Of a DNA stretch of 64,000 bases, positions 46,439 through 63,018 are shown one piece after another. The notes beneath the pieces were generated by a model. It did not search any database. It worked only from the letters and a program-made list of their open reading frames with translations, and was not told the DNA's origin. The stretch is from a virus. How positions within the stretch are numbered: the first letter of the stretch is position 1; each line of letters starts with the position of its first letter. The DNA lies in IMG/VR virus record IMGVR_UViG_3300025849_002481, positions 11,721 to 75,720 of that record; one strand, written 5' to 3'. A program made the translations under genes and the position numbers.

Positions 46439-47290
46439 ATGACAACATTACATACGTTCGGTTGTAGTATTACACAAGGACATGCACTTCCAGATGTAGT
46501 TAAACCTCCACTCACAGCAGAAGAAGAAGTTGCATTAGGTAGAGAGTCACATTGGGCAGATGAACATATACTTAAACCCAGTAACTATGCTTGGCCTAAA
46601 TTACTAGGCGATAAACTTAATTTGCCTGTACAAAATTATGCAAAACGTGGAGCTTGCTTTCAACAAATTGCTCGACAATGTGCTGTGTCAGCTCAAAACA
46701 TTAAACCTGATGACATTGTAATAGTAATGTGGACATACTTTAGTAGGCTTACTTTACAGTGGCCAGCTAGAACAGCCGTTCCGCTTACACATATACCAGC
46801 ACCAGAAAACAATTTCCTAACACGTATATTGCCAGGCTTTAATAAATTCTTTGGTCTTAGTCAACTAAAAGAACCTGATCCTTTTGACGAAACTGAAGGG
46901 AAGATTTATAACTACATACAGTCGTCTATAAATTATACATTTGATCCGTTGGTTATGTATGATCGATTCCATAACAATTTAGTTTTACAAACAATGACAG
47001 ACGGTCACCTTAGATCTACTGGTGCAAAGATTATACATTTAAGTGTAGAATATCAACCATATATAGATCAACTTGAAGGTGCAAGACAAGCTCTTGATAC
47101 ATCATTACAGTCACCATATGAAATACCAGATCCAAATGATTGGTATTCTTTATCAGTAGATCATGATAGCTGTCGAATAATTCATGATCCTAGTATACCG
47201 TTAACAGGTGAAAACGGACATCCTAATGTTCAACATCATATTAACTATGCTAACCATATCTATGAAAAACATTTTGGAGGAGGAGTATGA
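46439..47290 (+). CDS. SGNH/GDSL hydrolase-like protein
   Basis: FGCSITQG, N.A..G, C-terminal GHP...H. Confidence 0.7.
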   Translation: MTTLHTFGCSITQGHALPDVVKPPLTAEEEVALGRESHWADEHILKPSNYAWPKLLGDKLNLPVQNYAKRGACFQQIARQCAVSAQNIKPDDIVIVMWTYFSRLTLQWPARTAVPLTHIPAPENNFLTRILPGFNKFFGLSQLKEPDPFDETEGKIYNYIQSSINYTFDPLVMYDRFHNNLVLQTMTDGHLRSTGAKIIHLSVEYQPYIDQLEGARQALDTSLQSPYEIPDPNDWYSLSVDHDSCRIIHDPSIPLTGENGHPNVQHHINYANHIYEKHFGGGV

Positions 47291-48759
47291 TCACCTGGGG
47301 GATTTCAGCTAACAGTCACGATGCTGCACTAGCAGTGTTTACAGACAACGGACTAGAGTTTGCTAGTCACGCTGAACGTTTTAGCGGAGTTAAGAATGAC
47401 CCACATCTCAATAAAGAGATAATTAACTATGCACGTAAATGGGGAGAGCCAGATGAAGTTGTTTGGTACGAAAAGCCTTTTAGAAAAACTCTTAGACAGC
47501 TTCGAGCAGGACAAGGATTCAACTTTAGGGAAAACAATATTAATCGTTATCTTCGACAGTATGGGATATCTGCTCCTATTCGTACTGTTTCTCATCATCA
47601 TTCCCATGCTGCTGCCGGTTATTATACTTCCCCTTTTACAGAAGCCACTGTTGTTTGTATTGACAGTATTGGAGAATTTGAAACTCTTACCATATGGGAA
47701 GGAGAAGGAACTAGACTTAAAAAAGTCTATTCACAAGGATACCCCAACTCTATCGGACTTTGGTATTCGGCTCTCACACAAAGAGTAGGACTAAAACCTA
47801 ACGAAGATGAATATATACTAATGGGTATGGCCGCTTATGGAGACCCTCAACGTTTATGGAACGACATGTATGAAATGTTTGATTACATTGACGGACCTGA
47901 CATTAGATTTAAAGAGAACTTACACCGAGGGTGCAAGCAATGGAAGCCAGAGCTTACTACAGAACAAGATATGTTTGACATTGCAGCTGTAACCCAAAAG
48001 ACATATGAGTTTACCCTAGAGCAAATATTGGCATGGGCCAAGAAGAACACAAAGAGCAATAACCTAGTTCTTATGGGAGGGTGTGCATTAAACTGTAGTG
48101 CTAACCATTTAGCCTATAAGTATTTTGATGACGTATGGATTATGCCAAACCCGGGCGATGCAGGATCAGCAATAGGGTCAGTATTAGCTCATAAGAAAGA
48201 ACACATGCCCATGGATCATGCATACCTGGGTTACAACATTGAAGGAGACTACCCAGTTGAAGAAGCAATCAGCGAACTTAAGAAAACGGGAATCGTGGGC
48301 GTTGCGAATGGTCGGGCGGAGTTTGGCCCTAGGGCTTTTGGCAATCGTAGCCTACTTGCTGATCCCAGGGGAAGGGATATCAAAAGCAAAGTCAATGACA
48401 TTAAGAAAAGACAACAGTTCAGACCCTTTGCTCCCGTGGTGCTCGCAGAACACGCAAGCAAAAACTTCAAAGGACACTATAATAACTATATGCAGTTTAC
48501 CTCCAAGTGCAAACATCCATTCCTGTATCCTGCCATCACCCACGTGGACGGCACAAGTAGAGTACAAACTGTTGAAGCAGATGGAAGCGGGATTAGAAGA
48601 TTGTTAGAAGCATGGTATGAGGAAACAGGCTGTCCAATGTTGTTGAACACTTCGCTCAATATCAAGGGCAAGCCCATGGTAAATAACTTGACAGATGCAC
48701 AAGAGTTTGCTATAATGTATAATGTAAAAGTATGTACAAAGGCTACAGATGACAACTAG
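47287..48759 (+). CDS. Carbamoyltransferase (NodU/CmcH family)
   Basis: SHDAA, ERFS..K, HH.SHAA, MGMAAYG, GGCALN, GDAG, EFGPRA.GNRS, FRPFAP, HVDGTSRVQT, LNTSLN. Confidence 0.95.
   Translation: MITWGISANSHDAALAVFTDNGLEFASHAERFSGVKNDPHLNKEIINYARKWGEPDEVVWYEKPFRKTLRQLRAGQGFNFRENNINRYLRQYGISAPIRTVSHHHSHAAAGYYTSPFTEATVVCIDSIGEFETLTIWEGEGTRLKKVYSQGYPNSIGLWYSALTQRVGLKPNEDEYILMGMAAYGDPQRLWNDMYEMFDYIDGPDIRFKENLHRGCKQWKPELTTEQDMFDIAAVTQKTYEFTLEQILAWAKKNTKSNNLVLMGGCALNCSANHLAYKYFDDVWIMPNPGDAGSAIGSVLAHKKEHMPMDHAYLGYNIEGDYPVEEAISELKKTGIVGVANGRAEFGPRAFGNRSLLADPRGRDIKSKVNDIKKRQQFRPFAPVVLAEHASKNFKGHYNNYMQFTSKCKHPFLYPAITHVDGTSRVQTVEADGSGIRRLLEAWYEETGCPMLLNTSLNIKGKPMVNNLTDAQEFAIMYNVKVCTKATDDN
48688..48716 (+). 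promoter_or_regulatory. Sigma70-type promoter of the helicase gene
   Basis: TTGACA-17-TATAAT inside the end of the upstream gene. Confidence 0.7.
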
Positions 48760-55587: not shown

Positions 55588-55953
55588 CTAGTCAGCTCTT
55601 GACCCTGCGTATGCTGTAAAGCCTGCGGCCTTGTAGACCTTAGCGGCTGCTTCAGCACCTGCTTCTTTGGTGCTCATGCACTGTGTGCCTAGTCCACTTG
55701 GGTTCCATATTGAGTAAGCACCTGTGTAGTCCTTCTCAAAGCCTGCTTGCTTCATGCGCTTGCCCAGCTTGGTGTTGCCTTTGATGCCATAGATGTTAAC
55801 CCAAGCAAAGCCACAGTAGGCATGCTCGCCATGTGTGTCCAAGTGTGCCTGTGCTGCATCACGTGCATGTTGTAGAGCAGCTTCCCTAATCATTACTAGG
55901 TCTGCTACAGTGTAATCGTTAAGTTCAACAGTTGATGTGTTAATAGTTGTCAT
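55588..55953 (-). CDS. Early hypothetical protein
   Basis: CGFAWV...SRAD motif; own promoter and GAGGGC leader. Confidence 0.75.
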   Translation of the reverse strand: MTTINTSTVELNDYTVADLVMIREAALQHARDAAQAHLDTHGEHAYCGFAWVNIYGIKGNTKLGKRMKQAGFEKDYTGAYSIWNPSGLGTQCMSTKEAGAEAAAKVYKAAGFTAYAGSRAD

Positions 55954-56034
55954 AGTGTTTAGCCCTCTGCTTTGTTTAATTTACTCTTACAGTGTACACT
56001 CTATTATGTACACTGTCAACCTTTTTCTTACCAA

Positions 56035-56304
56035 TTAGTAGATGCACTCTGGAGTGTCTAGCCAGTTGTTCAAACAGTATGCTTCTAGCTCTCGTTGTAC
56101 TTGTGCAAGGAACTTGGTCTTCTTGCGCACATATGCCATAGGAGCTTCACCATCACAGTGTAGGTTCTCTGGGCTTAGTTCTGATGCAATAGCATTCATC
56201 AAGTCATTTGCATCTGTTTGTGCTAGTGGGAAGTTCATAGCGCCCTGGCCGAAGATTGCGTTCCACTTGTTCTTTTGTTCTACGTATGCTTCTAGGTTTT
56301 TCAT
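56035..56304 (-). CDS. Early hypothetical protein
   Basis: Start MKNLEAY at 56304 (the promoter lies inside the longer called ORF); LSPENLHCDGE motif. Confidence 0.75.
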   Translation of the reverse strand: MKNLEAYVEQKNKWNAIFGQGAMNFPLAQTDANDLMNAIASELSPENLHCDGEAPMAYVRKKTKFLAQVQRELEAYCLNNWLDTPECIY

Positions 56305-56410
56305 TGTGTGCCCTTGCTTTGTTAATATACTTACTATTATAAGGTCACTTTGGGTGTGTGTCAACCTTTTATTTGCCAAAATCGTAAATTAATTTCCACC
56401 GGCTGTAGTC

Positions 56411-56537
56411 AAAAGAAAGCCCAGGAGTGTTTGGACGAGGGCACATCCTACTCCTGGGCGCATGTGTAAGCAAGCTTCTTAGAGGGCTGAGGGGCGCCTG
56501 CTGTACACTTTTAAGCACTGTGTGGTCGCTGAGGGCA
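56411..56537 (-). ncRNA. Putative structured 3'-UTR / small RNA with GCCCUC loops, ending in a terminator
   Basis: Two hairpins whose G-U pairs work only on the minus strand; loops GCCCCUCAGCCCUC and UGCCCU; U-tract at 56411-56418. Confidence 0.55.
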
Positions 56538-57536
56538 TTAGCGATTCTGCATCACAGTGTTTTCTGCCATAGCTTCCCAACGTTGTGGAAATGCTACAGC
56601 AAGCTCGGCAACTTTAAGTACTGTTCTCAATGACAGCTCACGTAGTTGCTTCTTATTAATATCAACGAAATCCATTACGTCTTCTTTGACATCATCTGAA
56701 AGTTTGTAGCTATCAAGCATGCCGTCTTGTACAACTTGCTTGATGCGCAACATCTTGTCCTTCTCACTCTTGATTGTGAGATCCATGTAGTGACAACGAC
56801 TCTCTAGTGCTTCCAAGTGCGAACGCAACTTCTTGCTCTTTACATCACGGAAGTCTAGGTTGGTAATAAAGATTGCACTACCTTTGAACTCGAAGCTGTC
56901 CGGCACACCTTCATTACGCAACTTGAAGCTGTCTGTGTTCCAGTGGATTGTACGCTTCTTCTTAGAGTCTAGTGCAGCTTTTAAAATATTAAGTGCAAGA
57001 GGCTCTTCGAACACAGCATCACAGTCATCGAACACAAGTACATTGTCTTGGTCTTTGAAGTTGAACAGTTTACAGTAGAGTCCGATTGGGCTCATAGCAC
57101 CTTTGACAACTTCATACTTCTGTCCACCACCTAGTGCGGCAACAGTGTCGTATCTGTCAAGTACTTCTTCTACACCATGTGACTTACCAACTCCTGGAGG
57201 ACCTGATACGATCATAGCACTTACAACACCCTTCTTGACAGCTTTGGTCATATCTTTCAACATGTCAAAGCGTTCACGGATGCGTTCTACAATCTCTTCA
57301 TCTGTTTCGGTTACAGTGTTTACTTTGGCTCCGGCAGCTTCATAAGCTGATGTGCCATCACACATGATCTTAATGTTACGCTCTGGAAAGCCTGGAACGG
57401 CTCTGCCATCTACTGTTACGTAGCCACCCTTGGCGCCTACTTTAAATTCTTGTACAAGTGGAAACACCATACCAGCTAGGTCGACGTCATTGCCTCTAAT
57501 CTTGTATGTGCCTTCTTTGATTCTAATGTTTGTCAT
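56538..57536 (-). CDS. AAA+/P-loop ATPase
   Basis: GPPGVGKS, VFDDCD, LKAALD, FITN, ALESRC. Confidence 0.85.
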   Translation of the reverse strand: MTNIRIKEGTYKIRGNDVDLAGMVFPLVQEFKVGAKGGYVTVDGRAVPGFPERNIKIMCDGTSAYEAAGAKVNTVTETDEEIVERIRERFDMLKDMTKAVKKGVVSAMIVSGPPGVGKSHGVEEVLDRYDTVAALGGGQKYEVVKGAMSPIGLYCKLFNFKDQDNVLVFDDCDAVFEEPLALNILKAALDSKKKRTIHWNTDSFKLRNEGVPDSFEFKGSAIFITNLDFRDVKSKKLRSHLEALESRCHYMDLTIKSEKDKMLRIKQVVQDGMLDSYKLSDDVKEDVMDFVDINKKQLRELSLRTVLKVAELAVAFPQRWEAMAENTVMQNR

Positions 57537-57588
57537 ATTGTTTGCCCTTCAGTTATTTAATTAATGCCTAATTATTAAACTTAGTATA

Positions 57589-57864
57589 CTACGACATCTG
57601 TGGAATGTCAATCTCTTTTTTAACAAACCGAGCAATTAAATTCATGTCCTCGGCTGTAAAGTCCTTTTCTAATTTAGGACCAAACGCATTGCCCAACTTG
57701 GTTAGCATAGAACCTACGTGGCTCATATCGTTCAAGAGTTTGAAGTCTTCGTCCTTCATGCCCTTACAGTTTGCGTATTCGCTCATGTCGCACATCTTGC
57801 GGCCAATCGATGCCAGTTGTTTGTGCTGTGCGCTTACTTCATAAATTGATGTGTTGTTTTTCAT
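57589..57864 (-). CDS. Early hypothetical protein
   Basis: Own promoter and GAGGGCA leader. Confidence 0.75.
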   Translation of the reverse strand: MKNNTSIYEVSAQHKQLASIGRKMCDMSEYANCKGMKDEDFKLLNDMSHVGSMLTKLGNAFGPKLEKDFTAEDMNLIARFVKKEIDIPQMS

Positions 57865-57940
57865 AGTGCCCTCATTTCCTAATTGTTATATACATTATAC
57901 GATCATTAAGAGTGTTTGTCAACCCCTAATTTGCCAAAAA

Positions 57941-58141
57941 TTAATCTAAATCGCAAACCCAACCGCCGGCTGTACCTTCGTACTCTGCAACCAATGTGCC
58001 ACCTAGTCCGAACGGTGAAGCAATCTCTGCAACTGGTTTGCCGGTGTGTTCACATATGCCCTGACCTAGCAGCTCAACCTTCTTAAAGCCTTCGTCTGTG
58101 CCAAAGCCACGGTTTACAAAGTGTACGTTCAGTTCTTGCAT
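57941..58141 (-). CDS. Early hypothetical protein
   Basis: Own promoter and GAGGGCA leader. Confidence 0.75.
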   Translation of the reverse strand: MQELNVHFVNRGFGTDEGFKKVELLGQGICEHTGKPVAEIASPFGLGGTLVAEYEGTAGGWVCDLD

Positions 58142-58208
58142 GTGTTGCCCTCTTGCTTAACTTATATATACACTATAGCACAGGTGCGCTATAGTGTCAA
58201 CCTTTTTT

Positions 58209-58550
58209 TTACATACTCCAATATGATTCTGATGATGGGCTCATATAGCCCGGAGTGTTCACAGTCTCTGTGATTGGCTTTTCTTTAGCTTCGTCCATGA
58301 TGCTATATACAGTCCGACTCTTCTCTATGTTCTTGTGGAAGTATGCCGCTTCTGCTATACCATAACGGAACATAGGATCGTTCACACTGTCTAGCAAGTC
58401 TGCTCTATAACGTTTGCTCATGCGTGTGAGTGCCGCTTTGGCCGCAGGCATTGTTTTATAGCTCTGGCGGTGATCAGGACGAACTACACCGTCCCGCTTG
58501 TTGAGCTTGCCCATGATGTAAGTTGATGATTTTTCGTAAATGTAAAACAT
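58209..58550 (-). CDS. Early hypothetical protein
   Basis: AAKAALTR and NTP...SPSSESYWSM motifs; own promoter. Confidence 0.75.
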   Translation of the reverse strand: MFYIYEKSSTYIMGKLNKRDGVVRPDHRQSYKTMPAAKAALTRMSKRYRADLLDSVNDPMFRYGIAEAAYFHKNIEKSRTVYSIMDEAKEKPITETVNTPGYMSPSSESYWSM

Positions 58551-58621
58551 TGATTGCCCTCTTTGTTTTTAAGTTTGTATATACACTATAGCACATAAAT
58601 GCTATAGTGTCAACCTTTTTT

Positions 58622-59014
58622 TTAACTTTTATACATACGCAAATCTAAATCCGCTCCGTCGTAATCGTGTGCATCTACTTGCTTGTAGTAAAAATCTAGT
58701 ATGTCGTGCTTTTTACAGTAATCAAAAAAGTGTTCGCTTATTCCTTCGTTAATACAATCATCATCGTATCTGTAATCTATTGCAGTTGCAAAAGCAGTAG
58801 CAAGCGTTTTATCTTTGCGTGTAAAATAGTTTTCTAATAGTTGTGTAGTTTGTACACACAATTCTTCTGTTGCACTAATCCAATCGTACACATTTTCCAT
58901 ACCGTGTTCTTCGCAAGCAAAATCTTCCGCACTTACAAGTTCAACTTTATAATTCATAGTGTGTGTTAAAAAATTACATAAATGTTTTAATTCACGTGTA
59001 GTAATGTTTTGCAT
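58622..59014 (-). CDS. Early hypothetical protein
   Basis: Start MQNITT at 59014 after GAGGGCA. Confidence 0.75.
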   Translation of the reverse strand: MQNITTRELKHLCNFLTHTMNYKVELVSAEDFACEEHGMENVYDWISATEELCVQTTQLLENYFTRKDKTLATAFATAIDYRYDDDCINEGISEHFFDYCKKHDILDFYYKQVDAHDYDGADLDLRMYKS

Positions 59015-59096
59015 ATTGCCCTCATGCTTTGTTATTATTATAGTTACACTATAGCACAAGTGCGCTATAGTGTCAACCTTTTTTTTACCAAAAAGT

Positions 59097-59369
59097 TTAA
59101 CTTTCGTATTTTACACCTACTAAACGCAAGTAGCGTCCTCCAAATGTAGTATGCACTTTATCACATCCTACTAGCAACTTTAACCATTTACAGTCACCTT
59201 CTGTAAAACGTTCTCCTACAATTCCAAAACACAAGTTGCGTTTGTCTGCAACTTTTGCATTGTCTTTCCAAACAACGTTAGTCCAACTGTTCCAAAAACT
59301 AGCATCCTTTTCTGCTAGTACTGTTGCAACAAGTTTACGTGCTTGTAGTGTGTTTAGTTTATTTTGCAT
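59097..59369 (-). CDS. Early hypothetical protein
   Basis: GAGGGC leader, TTGCAT-17-TATATT promoter. Confidence 0.7.
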   Translation of the reverse strand: MQNKLNTLQARKLVATVLAEKDASFWNSWTNVVWKDNAKVADKRNLCFGIVGERFTEGDCKWLKLLVGCDKVHTTFGGRYLRLVGVKYES

Positions 59370-59477
59370 TTAAAGCCCTCCAAATGCTGTTACGTTATAA
59401 TTTAATATAGCACCGGTTTGCGCATAATGCAACCATTTTTTTAGTTTGTTACGTTACGTTATTTGGATAAAAAGAGG

Positions 59478-59507
59478 TTGACAACCCCGGCTGTTGTGTG
59501 TTATAAT
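59478..59507 (+). promoter_or_regulatory. Plus-strand sigma70 promoter facing the tRNA cluster
   Basis: TTGACA-18-TATAAT with an extended -10 TG. Confidence 0.65.
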
Positions 59508-59597
59508 GGATTGATGCCCGAAGGTTCTGGACCGGCTGTACCTACTTCGGTTCGGAAGGGTCTTACTGTGAGGGCGGCATGCCCTTCCGAACGTATT

Positions 59598-59684
59598 TGG
59601 TGCTCGCACCCGGACTCGAACCGGGACGCCGTAATCAGCGACAGATTTTAAGTCTGTTGTGTCTACCTATTCCACCATGCGAGC
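59598..59684 (-). tRNA. tRNA-Leu(UAA)
   Basis: Cloverleaf; anticodon arm ACAGA-CTTAAAA-TCTGT, long variable arm, GGTTCGAGTCC, encoded CCA. Confidence 0.95.
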
Positions 59685-59689
59685 GGTGT

Positions 59690-59766
59690 TGGCCTGCCCT
59701 GCAGGATTCGAACCTGCGACCCACAGCTTAGAAGGCTGTTGCTCTATCCAGCTGAGCTAAGGGCAG
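59690..59766 (-). tRNA. tRNA-Arg(UCU)
   Basis: Anticodon arm ACAGC-CTTCTAA-GCTGT, GGTTCGAATCC, CCA. Confidence 0.95.
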
Positions 59767-59768
59767 TC

Positions 59769-59845
59769 TGGTACGCCTGGAGGGACTTGAACCCCCAACC
59801 TGCGGATTATGAGTCCGACGCTCTAACCAATTGAGCTACAGGCGC
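59769..59845 (-). tRNA. tRNA with CAU anticodon, probably Ile2 (lysidine) rather than Met
   Basis: CGGA-CTCATAA-TCCG arm, CCA. Acceptor stem has C4-G69 and C5-G68 (TilS determinants in E. coli); no initiator GGG/CCC stem. Confidence 0.85.
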
Positions 59846-59974
59846 AAAACTTTATTTCTAGTTGGGTGTTAAGATGATCCTCTTCTATCTTACAAAATGA
59901 TTTCCAATGAGCCCCACCGCTCTCAATTGGATCGTCACCGGCTGTCACGGTCACGCCCTAGGTTGTAGAGTTGC

Positions 59975-60304
59975 CTACGCTGTGATTATGTCCTCGGACT
60001 CAGCGGTAATCGGCTGTACCTCTACTTTCGTTGTTTCGCTCTGCTCCGGCTGTGCCTTCACATTTCTTACAACAAACTCTGCAATCGCACTCTGTTGAGC
60101 TTCGCTTTGGAAGTTCGGGTGTGCCATTAATACTTTACAGACATCTGCTTTTGACATTTTTTCGCCAAGTTCGATCAACTCAATGTCGTCGTGTCCGTTC
60201 TTAGCTAAGATCTTGAACCTACCTACATAGTCATTCGCGAACCTTACCTTGGTCACTCCGTTGTGTGTTGATGTTCCTGCTACTTCAAAAGTTTTAGTTG
60301 TCAT
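59975..60304 (-). CDS. Early hypothetical protein
   Basis: VAGTS...G..KVRFAND motif; own promoter. Confidence 0.75.
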   Translation of the reverse strand: MTTKTFEVAGTSTHNGVTKVRFANDYVGRFKILAKNGHDDIELIELGEKMSKADVCKVLMAHPNFQSEAQQSAIAEFVVRNVKAQPEQSETTKVEVQPITAESEDIITA

Positions 60305-60374
60305 ATTTGCCTCTCATTGTTTTAGTTTATATTATACATTATAGCACCAATTGCCACAATGGTCAACCTTTTTT

Positions 60375-60842
60375 TTAACTATTTTGGCTAGCCGCAATCC
60401 GTGCTTCCATAGCCGCTAGTTCGATTGGAACCATAACGTCTAAGAAGTTAAAGATTGGATAACCGTTTTCGTCTTTGGCACCGTGATCGTTAACTAACCA
60501 CTCTTTGCCATTCCAAAGGTAGGCATACTCTTCCATGTCATCAATCCAACTTGGAATGTCTGCATACTCTTGAATGCTCAGCTGCTCGCCTCGGTCTCGG
60601 CTGTAAAACAATGTCCAATCGTCTCGTTGTGTCGAACGATCGTCAAAGTCTTGTGGATCACCAATCTGCTCACCTAGTGAACTGATTGAACCTAGTGCAA
60701 CCAACGCTTCGATCTTATCGATGTCCGTGTAGTTCTCCAACAGGATCTTTCCGTTGTTTGCGACATAGCCGTCCCAGTGACAGTATACTGAAACAATCTT
60801 GCCTTCTTTGGTCTTCATTGCGATGTTTGAACGTGTTGCCAT
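60375..60842 (-). CDS. Early hypothetical protein
   Basis: MATRS.I...SVYCHWDGY and EEYAYL motifs; own promoter. Confidence 0.75.
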   Translation of the reverse strand: MATRSNIAMKTKEGKIVSVYCHWDGYVANNGKILLENYTDIDKIEALVALGSISSLGEQIGDPQDFDDRSTQRDDWTLFYSRDRGEQLSIQEYADIPSWIDDMEEYAYLWNGKEWLVNDHGAKDENGYPIFNFLDVMVPIELAAMEARIAASQNS

Positions 60843-60912
60843 TTTGTTTGCCCTCTAGCGTTTGTTTAACTTACTCTTATAATATAGCACCAAAGTGCTC
60901 AGTTGTCAACCC

Positions 60913-61116
60913 CTAATTTACCGAAACTTGATATCCATATTGCCAATGGCCGTTGTCTAGATCAAACACACAACGATCCTTGTCATCTACATAGACCTTA
61001 TCCATGTCTATGCCATACTTGTCGCCGGCTGTAGCACATAGCTCAATGCCTTTTACCTTAGCTTCACCAAACCGGCTGTTGACCTTAGTTCCTATTTTAA
61101 TATATGTTCTGCTCAT
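60913..61116 (-). CDS. Early hypothetical protein
   Basis: Own promoter and GAGGGCA leader; LDNGHW.YG.Q. Confidence 0.75.
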   Translation of the reverse strand: MSRTYIKIGTKVNSRFGEAKVKGIELCATAGDKYGIDMDKVYVDDKDRCVFDLDNGHWQYGYQVSVN

Positions 61117-61177
61117 AGTGCCCTCATTTCCTAATTGTTATATACAGTATAGCTTCAAGTGATCGAGATGTCAACCT

Positions 61178-61756
61178 TTATTTTGCCAATTCTCGTTCTT
61201 TTTCTTCTTCCATTTCCTCTTCGATCCATTCACGCCTATTCTCAATAAGCTCAAACTCGTCGTCAAGTTTCTGGAATAGCTCTGGAGTGTCTTCAAGAGC
61301 ACAAGTGCCTTTGACTACCGCTTCGCACCATTCGCTCAGGCCTTCCATATATTGATCATCGCCATCTGTGTAGATACCTGCAAAGTCCATACCACCTTCT
61401 TCATAGGTTGCCTCAATCGAACAGTTGTCCATATCGTCTAACCAGGTGTTGTATGCTTCAATGGGAGGTGCCCACGCACTATCAAACCAACCTGTGATAT
61501 GACTTGTGCCATCTTTGTTGTCCACATACTCTAGACCTTCGTCTGAGATGTCCCACTTGGTCCCCCAGTTGCTAACATGCCAGTCATACCAGTTCGGACC
61601 ATCACTAGGAGCGGTTGTGCCTTCTAGTTCTTTGGGCATCGGAACCATTGCATCAAGTAGAGCAAAGTCCTCTCCATCATGTGCATCATCCCACAGTTGC
61701 TTGATTGTGTCTGTTGGACCACTAATTGTGATTGAGTTCGAACACCAATTAGGCAT
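61178..61756 (-). CDS. DUF1281/YubB-like ferredoxin-fold protein
   Basis: MPNWCSN, WY.W...NWGTKWD, FDSAWAPP, YEE.G..FAG. Confidence 0.75.
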   Translation of the reverse strand: MPNWCSNSITISGPTDTIKQLWDDAHDGEDFALLDAMVPMPKELEGTTAPSDGPNWYDWHVSNWGTKWDISDEGLEYVDNKDGTSHITGWFDSAWAPPIEAYNTWLDDMDNCSIEATYEEGGMDFAGIYTDGDDQYMEGLSEWCEAVVKGTCALEDTPELFQKLDDEFELIENRREWIEEEMEEEKERELAK

Positions 61757-61925
61757 AGTCAGTCTCCTCTAAAAAACGTGGTGAAAGTTCATTGCAATCA
61801 AGCATATCTTCGACATCATCTGTGCTCATATACTTGAGTGCCATAGTCAGCATATCTTCGGCTGTGACGAAACCGTCGTCGATCAGCTCTAGTGCTGTGT
61901 CTCTTGCGTTAGTTGGTCTTTTCAT
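61749..61925 (-). CDS. 58-aa early protein (not in ORF track)
   Basis: MKRPTNARDTALELIDDG...FLEETDYA; own promoter, GAGGGCA leader, overlaps the next start. Confidence 0.7.
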   Translation of the reverse strand: MKRPTNARDTALELIDDGFVTAEDMLTMALKYMSTDDVEDMLDCNELSPRFLEETDYA

Positions 61926-61990
61926 ATTGCCCTCATTTCCTAATTGTTATATACAGTATAGCGTCAATTGATCCAGTTGTCAACCTCTTT

Positions 61991-62206
61991 TTAACCAATT
62001 TCCTCTACTTCGCGACCTTGTGCAAAGTCCATCAAGTCTGCGGCCAATGCCGCGGCCTGTGCTCGTGTCAATTGCAAGTGATCAAAGAACTCTGTGCCTA
62101 CAGGTCGCTCTTTACGCATTGTAACCTGGACGCTGGTGCCTTGACCGCCGTTTGCGAAACGGGTTAATGAAACGCCTTGTGCGTGTGATTTCAAATCTGT
62201 TGACAT
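61991..62206 (-). CDS. Early hypothetical protein
   Basis: Own promoter, GAGGAG SD. Confidence 0.75.
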   Translation of the reverse strand: MSTDLKSHAQGVSLTRFANGGQGTSVQVTMRKERPVGTEFFDHLQLTRAQAAALAADLMDFAQGREVEEIG

Positions 62207-62279
62207 CTGTGTCTCCTCTTTGCCCTAATTGTTATATACAGTATAGCACCTAGATGCTACACTGTCAACCTCTTTTTGC

Positions 62280-62621
62280 TCAAAAGTCCTGTGGATAACC
62301 TTTGGAACGCATCTCCGGCTGTAGGGGTGATACCACGATGACCTGCTCTTTGAGGAAGTCACGATAGTCCTCATCCTCCGGCAGTTGTTCGATCCACTCT
62401 TGCTCAGTGAGGAACTCTGTGGGGAACTCCTTGCAGCTGATGTTGTTCTCCATAGTGATCGCAGCTACGAACGCGGCCGCATCCTGCACTCGATCCAAAC
62501 CCTGGACCAAGTATTCTGAACCGCCTTTGAACTTCCAATAGGCGTTGCCTGATGAAAACTTACCGTCCTCACAGTGTGCGCCATAGTTCTCTAAAAATTG
62601 TGTTTTGATTACGAAATTCAT
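62280..62621 (-). CDS. Early hypothetical protein
   Basis: TQ..ENYGAH...YWKFKGG motif; own promoter. Confidence 0.75.
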   Translation of the reverse strand: MNFVIKTQFLENYGAHCEDGKFSSGNAYWKFKGGSEYLVQGLDRVQDAAAFVAAITMENNISCKEFPTEFLTEQEWIEQLPEDEDYRDFLKEQVIVVSPLQPEMRSKGYPQDF

Positions 62622-62683
62622 ATTGCCCTCTTTTCCCTAACTGTTATATACAGTATACCTTCAAAACCGGCTGCTGTCAACCT

Positions 62684-62911
62684 CTAATTTACCAAAAAGT
62701 CCTCGTCAACGATGAAACTGTATACGGCCTCCCTAACGGCTGTATCGGTTGCTTCTTCGTAACCGTCGGCTGTAGCCAGCTTCTCCAATTCACGAACGGT
62801 CCATGCCCAAGCACTTTCAGCACCATCTTCGGCTGTTAACTGTAGACCGGCTGTGGCGATCCGTGTGACCAATTCATTGCCCTCGGCTGTGAACATTGCG
62901 AAATCTTTCAT
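62684..62911 (-). CDS. Early hypothetical protein (first gene of the array)
   Basis: MFT.EGN...EATDTAVRE motif; own promoter. Confidence 0.75.
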   Translation of the reverse strand: MKDFAMFTAEGNELVTRIATAGLQLTAEDGAESAWAWTVRELEKLATADGYEEATDTAVREAVYSFIVDEDFLVN

Positions 62912-63018
62912 ATCGTGCCCTCCTAATCTCTAACTGTTATATACAGTATAGCCTCAAACCTCGGCTGTGTCAACCTTTATTTTACCAAAATGTGAAAAAA
63001 GTTTCCTCCGGCTGTAGA

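Follow-up and report, generated by a model that had tools for sequence, protein, structure and literature searches.

Background

Several bacterial RNAs control translation by means of short C-rich words exposed in the loops of hairpins. In RNAIII and RsaE of S. aureus and in RoxS of B. subtilis, C-rich loop words pair with the G-rich ribosome sites of several mRNAs and block initiation. Each of these RNAs comes from a separate cellular gene that has a promoter of its own, and the words (UCCC/CCCC) are directed against ordinary Shine-Dalgarno sequences. A related arrangement exists within a single message in S. aureus, where an anti-Shine-Dalgarno motif in the 3' UTR of the icaR mRNA pairs with the 5' UTR of that mRNA, i.e., one motif serves one target. 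Repeated loop words can also be binding sites for proteins, as in the sponges CsrB and RsmZ, whose repeated GGA loop words bind CsrA/RsmA.

The closest known kind of RNA to the element described below is that of the cuckoo or CcsR small RNAs of Alphaproteobacteria (RSs0680a-d, alpha-r14, SmelA075/A099). These cellular, stress-induced RNAs consist of 2-4 adjacent hairpins with highly variable stems, and each loop carries one conserved anti-Shine-Dalgarno-like word, CCUCCUCCC. The gene upstream of the hairpins encodes a 71-aa DUF1127 protein; in Rhodobacter the product of this upstream ORF, CcaF1, binds the CcsR RNAs and is their RNA-binding maturation factor (PMC8034643).

Among phages, T4 makes an early protein, RegA (PF01818), that lowers the translation of many early messages at their initiation regions. 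For large phages that have neither RegA nor RegB, we know of no described mechanism by which early protein synthesis is shut off.

Here we describe an array of hairpins at the end of an early ATPase gene of an uncultured marine giant phage. The loops of the array carry the word GCCCUC, the complement of a tag, GAGGGC, found in the leaders of the early genes of the same phage, and related phages have other loop words with correspondingly different leader words. Judging from these sequence relationships, loops and tags very probably base-pair to control early protein synthesis.

Source genome and early genes

The window, by which we mean the whole stretch of 64,000 nucleotides that was analysed, belongs to IMGVR_UViG_3300025849_002481, a 75.7-kb fragment of an uncultured marine giant phage with genes for the tail sheath, large terminase, helicase, primase and baseplate proteins. 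The closest cultured relative is the Pseudomonas jumbo phage PA5oct (287 kb; TerL 54%, ATPase 42%), and no match to the locus was found by blastn among 50,697 records of cultured phages. Genomes of roughly 350 kb can be deduced from larger related contigs, which measure 155-275 kb at an estimated completeness of 44-77%. The lineage is frequent in marine and estuarine metagenomes, with more than 540 ATPase matches among those listed. Amid the replication and structural genes of the window there is also an auxiliary metabolic gene, a Nol-like carbamoyltransferase at 47287-48759 on the plus strand (phrog_1601, 2.9e-99).

The early block is a series of small genes on the minus strand, extending from ~63 kb down to 55.5 kb and including a cluster of three tRNA genes (tRNA-Met/Arg/Leu). 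Nearly all genes of the block have an individual TTGACA-N17-TATAnT promoter and a short A/U-rich leader. The gene that precedes the array (56538-57536, minus strand) encodes an early AAA ATPase of 332 aa, a homologue of T4 nrdC.10 (phrog_1250 at 1.7e-83) with a weak AAA_16 match in Pfam; by tblastn it matches nrdC.10-annotated features in Acinetobacter phage Acj9 and a protein of PA5oct. Its promoter is at 57611-57583 and its stop codon, TAA, at 56540-56538.

Structure of the hairpin array

The minus strand from 56559 to 56411 folds into three hairpins whose loops contain three exact copies of GCCCUC, all inside 106 nt of the array, and one GCCCCUC. The first hairpin, P1 (56559-56516 in the MFE fold), lies over the ATPase stop codon, its 5' arm being the final codons of the ATPase gene. 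It has an outer stem CACUGUG/CACAGUG, an inner stem UCGCU/AGCGA and the loop AAUGCCCUC, with the motif at 56536-56531. The second hairpin (56508-56464) has one G-U pair in its stem and a 20-nt loop that contains GCCCCUC at 56495-56489 and GCCCUC at 56487-56482. The third (56459-56411) is an intrinsic terminator, in which the stem GCCCAGGAGU/ACUCCUGGGC at 56459-56419 is followed by a U run at 56418-56411; by this stem and UUUCUUUU it qualifies as Rho-independent. Its 10-bp outer stem is topped by an inner hairpin GGAU/GUCC with the 8-nt loop GUGCCCUC, and the motif is at 56442-56437. That this hairpin is a terminator accounts for the last hairpin only, and not for the loop word or for the other hairpins.

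An earlier note on this DNA, made from the sequence alone, had proposed a small antisense RNA with four unpaired copies of the complement of the early leader motif (three exact and one GCCCCUC), and all four are indeed found in loops of the folded array. The second hairpin with its C-rich loop is also as the note had it. For the first copy, the note had the RNA open with UGCCCUC right after the stop codon; the sequence is right (a U and then GCCCUC), but the segment sits in the loop of P1 and is not a free 5' end. The apical loop that the note gave for the terminator, UGCCCU, proved wrong, the real top being the inner hairpin described above. Finally, the note took G-U pairs as support for the minus strand only, and here it is borne out: an inner-stem U-G pair, which on the opposite strand would be A-C, is present in 18 of 29 relatives. 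The fold z-score relative to shuffles is -2.76 for the minus strand and -0.85 for the plus strand.

No promoter of the array's own was found on the minus strand between 57583 and 56364. Because the first hairpin straddles the ATPase stop codon and such a promoter is lacking, the array is best regarded as the 3' trailer of the ATPase message rather than as a stand-alone gene. It has the features of a 3'-UTR-borne RNA, i.e., no promoter of its own, a terminator shared with the mRNA and a start inside the coding region. Nor was a convincing terminator found on the minus strand between any of the promoters at 59076, 58613, 58200, 57922 and 57611 and the terminator of the array, from which it would follow that the array is the common 3' end of nested early transcripts, all read through to this terminator, and probably also their 3' trailer. 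Past the element, transcription is restarted by another early promoter, TTGACA-N17-TATAAT at 56364-56336 (minus strand), whose gene has the leader variant AAGGGCAC.

The GAGGGC tag of early leaders

The hexamer GAGGGC occurs 20 times in the window, compared to 8.0 +/- 2.9 times in shuffled sequences, none of 100 shuffles reaching 20. Of its 12 copies on the minus strand, 11 are followed at a distance of 3-8 nt by the ATG of an ORF. These eleven tagged leaders, the presumed targets of the array, extend over 55962-62922 on the minus strand, with 6-nt tags at 55962, 57868, 58147, 58556, 59018, 59375, 60850, 61120, 61929, 62625 and 62917. According to a crude gene list of the window, the tag is present in 11 of 17 early ORFs and in none of ~59 other genes, which use GGAG or AGGA-type sites. 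Two more early ORFs carry AAGGGC, among them the ATPase, and four have neither the tag nor a close variant. The earlier note had placed the motif before nearly every early start codon; about a third of the early ORFs in the window are without the exact tag. In relatives of the phage, 259 of 285 distinct GAGGGC contexts have an ATG within 2-10 nt, compared to 17% of random positions, and the base after GAGGGC is A in 77%. GAGGGC is a ribosome-site feature, which in the window precedes early genes only.

The tags are found in weakly structured leaders (probability of being unpaired, 0.66). The predicted tag-loop duplexes range from -10.4 kcal/mol for 6 bp to -14.7 kcal/mol for 8 bp (GAGGGCAC with GUGCCCUC), the GAGG:CCUC core alone giving -3.7 kcal/mol. 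For duplexes between the loops and the initiation regions, the mean is -15.9 kcal/mol for 16 early genes, compared to -7.9 kcal/mol for the other 59 (Mann-Whitney p = 1.7e-9). Early genes fill 15 of the top 16 places by predicted duplex, in agreement with the expectation of the earlier note that they should rank top, but since the tag itself produces this ranking, it adds no independent evidence. Early leaders also form better RNAduplex pairings with the canonical 16S tail than do the leaders of other genes (-6.9 vs -4.6 kcal/mol), and the tag is therefore partly just a good Shine-Dalgarno sequence.

Conservation and loop exposure among relatives

A search of IMG/VR with the ATPase protein yielded 60 loci at 67-87% identity. 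In 59 of these, the 260 nt past the stop codon contain one to five sense copies of GCCCTC, mostly two to four, spaced ~35-45 nt apart; at the sixtieth locus (L017) the GCCCTC cluster is shifted ~450-870 nt downstream. In the first 265 nt past the stop, GCCCTC has a density of 10 per kb; for the remainder of this strand the value is 0.15 per kb. The five large relatives (155-275 kb records) have one cluster each, at this locus, and together they contain one further chance pair in 1.19 Mb; a reversed control pattern gave zero. Among metagenome contigs, which form an independent set, the motif is present in 72 of 72 evaluable loci, with at least two copies in 71. The loops are conserved in relatives, which had been a point at issue for the proposed RNA, in all 60 IMG/VR loci (one displaced) as well as in the 72 metagenome loci. 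A scan of viral contigs with a 15-mer (GCCCTCACGCTCTGC) returned mostly chance matches in unrelated high-GC contigs, with clusters in known relatives only, and was set aside; the protein query P0001 gave no match in viral contigs. In PA5oct, the next gene begins 43 nt after the ATPase, without a hairpin array, and T4 nrdC.10 is followed by a 94-nt spacer with one hairpin that has no anti-Shine-Dalgarno loop.

Each element was folded without constraints and the probabilities of bases being unpaired were recorded. Over the 60 relatives the probability is 0.88 for GCCCUC and 0.35 for all other bases of the element. Folding of the flanks around the motif was compared with that of shuffled flanks in 124 distinct contexts and gave a mean z of -4.4. 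These contexts have 63 different closing helices, and the loops are mostly 7-9 nt long and of the form NN-GCCCUC. Comparison of these folds indicates that the stems vary with compensatory changes and that the loop word is constant.

In P1 the variation concerns Thr, Val and Met codons in the coding arm, which the trailer arm tracks. The MAFFT alignment (A1) misaligned the 3' arm, and the comparison was made as a duplex test of own arm versus other arm. Among 48 relatives, the coding arm gains 4.1 kcal/mol when it is paired with its own trailer instead of the trailer of a locus with a different arm, and the own pairing is the better one in 92% of cases (Wilcoxon p = 9e-12, a value inflated by kinship among the loci). 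An earlier ungapped 10-nt arm-matching score gave a weak separation of own from other trailers. In the terminator module (alignment A2, 29 relatives), 91.6% of the cells are paired, compared to 72% in shuffles and 32-50% in slid controls, and the covariation score is 0.597, compared to 0.24 in shuffles, with 0 of 500 shuffles reaching the observed value. Changes on both sides are seen in eight of the nine terminator pairs. The relatives are phylogenetically related and p-values overstate their independence.

Joint change of loop and leader words

Among 1.84 billion representative proteins, the search, which detected 3567 homologues of the ATPase, recovered homologues at 45-52% identity, one of which (P0003) led to 76 loci of sister clades. 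In these loci the corresponding position, which starts at the stop codon or directly behind it, is occupied by hairpins whose C/U-rich loop words are different. Clade C has two or three copies of GAUUCGCUCCC, one at the stop codon and the others in hairpin loops, that of the terminator among them. In clade B, one hairpin has a large loop, made of CUCCUCCUCC or CUCUCUCCUCC runs. In clade D, which is small, GCUCCUUA follows immediately after the stop.

Leader words were scored at the plus-strand ORFs of the same loci. The word GAGGGC is found in 36.7% of the leaders in clade A, that of the window, 0% in clade B and 0.4% in clade C, and its complement, GCCCTC, occurs in the loops at 2.65, 0.05 and 0 copies per element, respectively. 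In the same order of clades, GGAGAGA has leader frequencies of 0%, 7.6% and 0.4%, and the loop word CTCCTCC has 0, 1.53 and 0 copies per element; GGAGCGA is present in 0%, 2.1% and 21.1% of leaders, and the loop word TCGCTCC in 0, 0 and 1.89 copies. The matched pair of clade C consists of UUCGCUCC loops and GGAGCGAA leaders, and the second matched sister-clade pair of CUCCUCUCC loops and GGAGAGAG leaders. In clade B, the matching word is present in only 7.6% of the putative leaders. The loop words of clades B and C are unpaired with probabilities of 0.88 and 0.82, compared to 0.39 and 0.37 for the rest of their elements. The earlier note had named beforehand the absence of co-variation between loop and leader as a finding that would count against its proposal; the co-variation is present, in three clades with three different words.

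Comparison with known RNAs

A scan of the window with Rfam 15 at gathering thresholds detected only the three tRNAs, and a permissive scan of 55900-57000 added only a chance match to NsiR1 (E = 1.8). In the literature on the loop and tag words and on anti-Shine-Dalgarno small RNAs of phages we found no description of the element.

The array shares with the cuckoo RNAs the succession of an ORF, a hairpin array and a terminator, and it has the same architecture of variable stems with one constant word, the number of hairpins being three in the window and 2-5 in relatives, with 63 closing helices. The upstream gene is different (a 332-aa AAA ATPase in the phage), and so is the loop word, which is GCCCUC in the window and its clade, only sister clade B having CUCCUCC runs. 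Furthermore, the phage word is specific to the lineage, and its counterpart is a private tag that the early genes of the phage itself carry. The phage array would work like a cuckoo RNA but is no member of that family, from which it is set apart by loop word, model match, upstream gene and taxon.

Other known systems share single features with the array. Like RNAIII, RsaE and RoxS, it keeps unpaired a C-rich word that is complementary to the ribosome sites of a number of genes; unlike them, it is a 3' trailer, and its word of 6-8 nt is matched to a private tag. As in icaR, an anti-Shine-Dalgarno word is located in a 3' UTR, and pairing with a ribosome site and action in cis are possible, but the phage has several loops and about a dozen tagged genes. 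The loops contain GCCCUC and no GGA, in contrast to the CsrB/RsmZ sponges. The likeness to T4 RegA concerns the proposed role, and the phage element is an RNA.

Proposed mechanism and alternative explanations

The explanation that we favour is as follows. The message of the early ATPase ends in a structured 3' trailer, a row of hairpins of which the last is the terminator, and each hairpin holds out a word of 6-8 nt, (GU)GCCCUC, in a small loop. Early messages have the private tag GAGGGC(AC) overlapping their Shine-Dalgarno position, and the loop word would pair with it. Covering of the ribosome-binding site would reduce translation of the tagged early genes, and late genes, which are without the tag, would escape. 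Individual tag-loop duplexes are only 6-8 bp, and the presence of several loops per RNA and several tags per nested transcript could provide avidity for such short duplexes. Action in cis, in trans or after processing would all be possible. The element would be the functional counterpart, as an RNA, of the RegA protein of T4. The idea of pairing has strong support from the comparison of relatives and clades. We consider it reasonably probable that the pairing covers ribosome sites and lowers translation of the tagged early genes; both the pairing in the cell and repression as its effect are parts of the best explanation that we infer.

Two further points bear on the timing and on the comparison with RegA. 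The array is made from the same early promoters as its supposed targets, and delayed shut-off therefore needs extra assumptions, such as greater stability or accumulation of the RNA. No RegA homologue (PF01818) was found in seven partial relatives or in the complete PA5oct genome, the T4 positive control scoring 2.3e-75, which fits an RNA substitute for RegA, weakly.

An alternative outcome, which we regard as unlikely, is that loops and tags pair with a consequence other than repression, such as 5'-3' stabilisation or circularisation of the nested transcript, protection from nucleases, or guidance of processing. With no terminator from the promoters 59076 to 57611 down to the array, tagged leaders and loops are probably on one molecule, and the leader of the ATPase itself, a variant (AAGGGC) in the window, carries the tag in most relatives, about 1010 nt upstream of the stop; the 3'UTR/5'UTR pairing of icaR is a precedent. 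However, occupancy of a Shine-Dalgarno sequence normally blocks initiation, and the tagged genes past the terminator (55953, 56304) could be reached only in trans.

It is quite unlikely that the loops are in the first place binding sites for a protein (an antiterminator acting at the terminator, or the ATPase itself), the array being a platform or sponge and the complementarity to leaders secondary. Repeated identical loops on variable stems are the architecture of sponges such as CsrB/RsmZ, and the upstream ORF of the CcsR array of Rhodobacter encodes an RNA-binding maturation factor (PMC8034643). The synteny of array and ATPase is likewise kept across clades whose ATPases are only ~50% identical. 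No RNA-binding domain was detected in the ATPase, however, and a protein platform leaves unexplained the exact complementarity of loop and leader in three clades with three words.

Since all loop words contain CCUC or CUCC, they could also be seen as general mimics of the 16S tail that soak up the Shine-Dalgarno sequences of the host and thereby shut it off. The CUCCUCC runs in the loops of clade B and the GCUCCUUA that follows the stop codon in clade D, which resembles the 16S 3' end, point in this direction. In clades A and C, however, the match between loop and leader continues past the GAGG/GGAG core, with GC(A) and CGAA, respectively, and these extensions match the phage's own leaders and not the canonical Shine-Dalgarno sequence. 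They cannot be paired by the canonical 16S 3' tail, which may not be that of the host. We consider such a mimic highly unlikely.

The prospect that the locus has no regulatory RNA function, being an ordinary terminator region, a mobile terminator-promoter cassette of the promoter-early stem-loop kind known from T4-type phages, or a site for a DNA-binding protein, is remote at best and was rejected: a real terminator is followed by an early promoter and the word exists also in double-stranded DNA, but strand polarity is strict (327 sense GAGGGC versus 50 sense GCCCTC outside the element), the motif is always in loops with compensating stems, loop and tag change jointly across clades, and the other intergenic regions of the early block have promoters without such hairpins.

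Returning to the pairing of loops with ribosome-site tags, the three sets of words raise a more general possibility, on which we are about evenly divided: each lineage may have a private tag/anti-tag pair, forming an orthogonal RNA switch that lowers the whole early regulon as a block and that co-evolved while the ATPase diverged to ~50% identity. If true, one conserved RNA and a private ribosome-site tag would constitute a concrete and directly testable mechanism, and the hairpin-array anti-Shine-Dalgarno design of the alphaproteobacterial cuckoo RNAs would extend to viruses. By diverging, the three tag/anti-tag pairs have in effect carried out a compensatory-mutation experiment in nature, and a use as orthogonal translational switches is conceivable.

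Additional sequence elements of the early block

Several other features were noticed in and around the early genes. An extra hairpin of 11 bp with GCCCUC (59575-59570) in its loop, the fourth exact copy, is located directly 3' of the tRNA-Met/Arg/Leu cluster, at 59592-59550 on the minus strand, and solitary GCCCUC-loop hairpins or terminators also occur in other early spacers of relatives. On the plus strand, 59478-59581 contains a perfect TTGACA-N18-TATAAT with an extended -10, followed by GAGGGC-N3-ATG (59570-59581) that opens a 50-aa ORF antisense to the tRNA genes. From its sequence, this site could represent a tagged antisense transcript or a chance by-product of the palindromic hairpin.

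Four early promoters on the minus strand (59076-59048, 58613-58585, 58200-58172 and 56019-55991) have a perfect 10-11-bp palindrome of the ACACTATAGCAC...GTGCTATAGTGT type over the spacer and -10. It resembles an operator at which a dimeric repressor would act on some of the early promoters. A promoter-plus-leader cassette, TATAnTgtatataacaattaggaaatGAGGGC, is near-identical in three early genes (61925-61749, 61116-60913 and 57864-57589, minus strand), and the analogy with the promoter-early stem-loop cassettes of T4-type phages suggests that it was spread by duplication or recombination. The word ACAGCCGG occurs in 13 copies, compared to 0.46 expected, between 56399 and 63317 of the window. 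The minus strand, on which the early genes lie, has twelve of them, some in spacers between genes and some within small ORFs; one copy is immediately 3' of the terminator of the array (56406-56399).

The hairpin that follows nrdC.10 in T4 (L337:2250-2343, minus strand) has a loop with ..AGAAAUAGA.., and in clade B phages (e.g., L262) a second hairpin after the ATPase has the loop UUUAGAAAUAGAC, which is nearly the same as that of T4. This shared loop sequence may represent a second conserved RNA element linked to the nrdC.10-type gene in distant T4-like phages.
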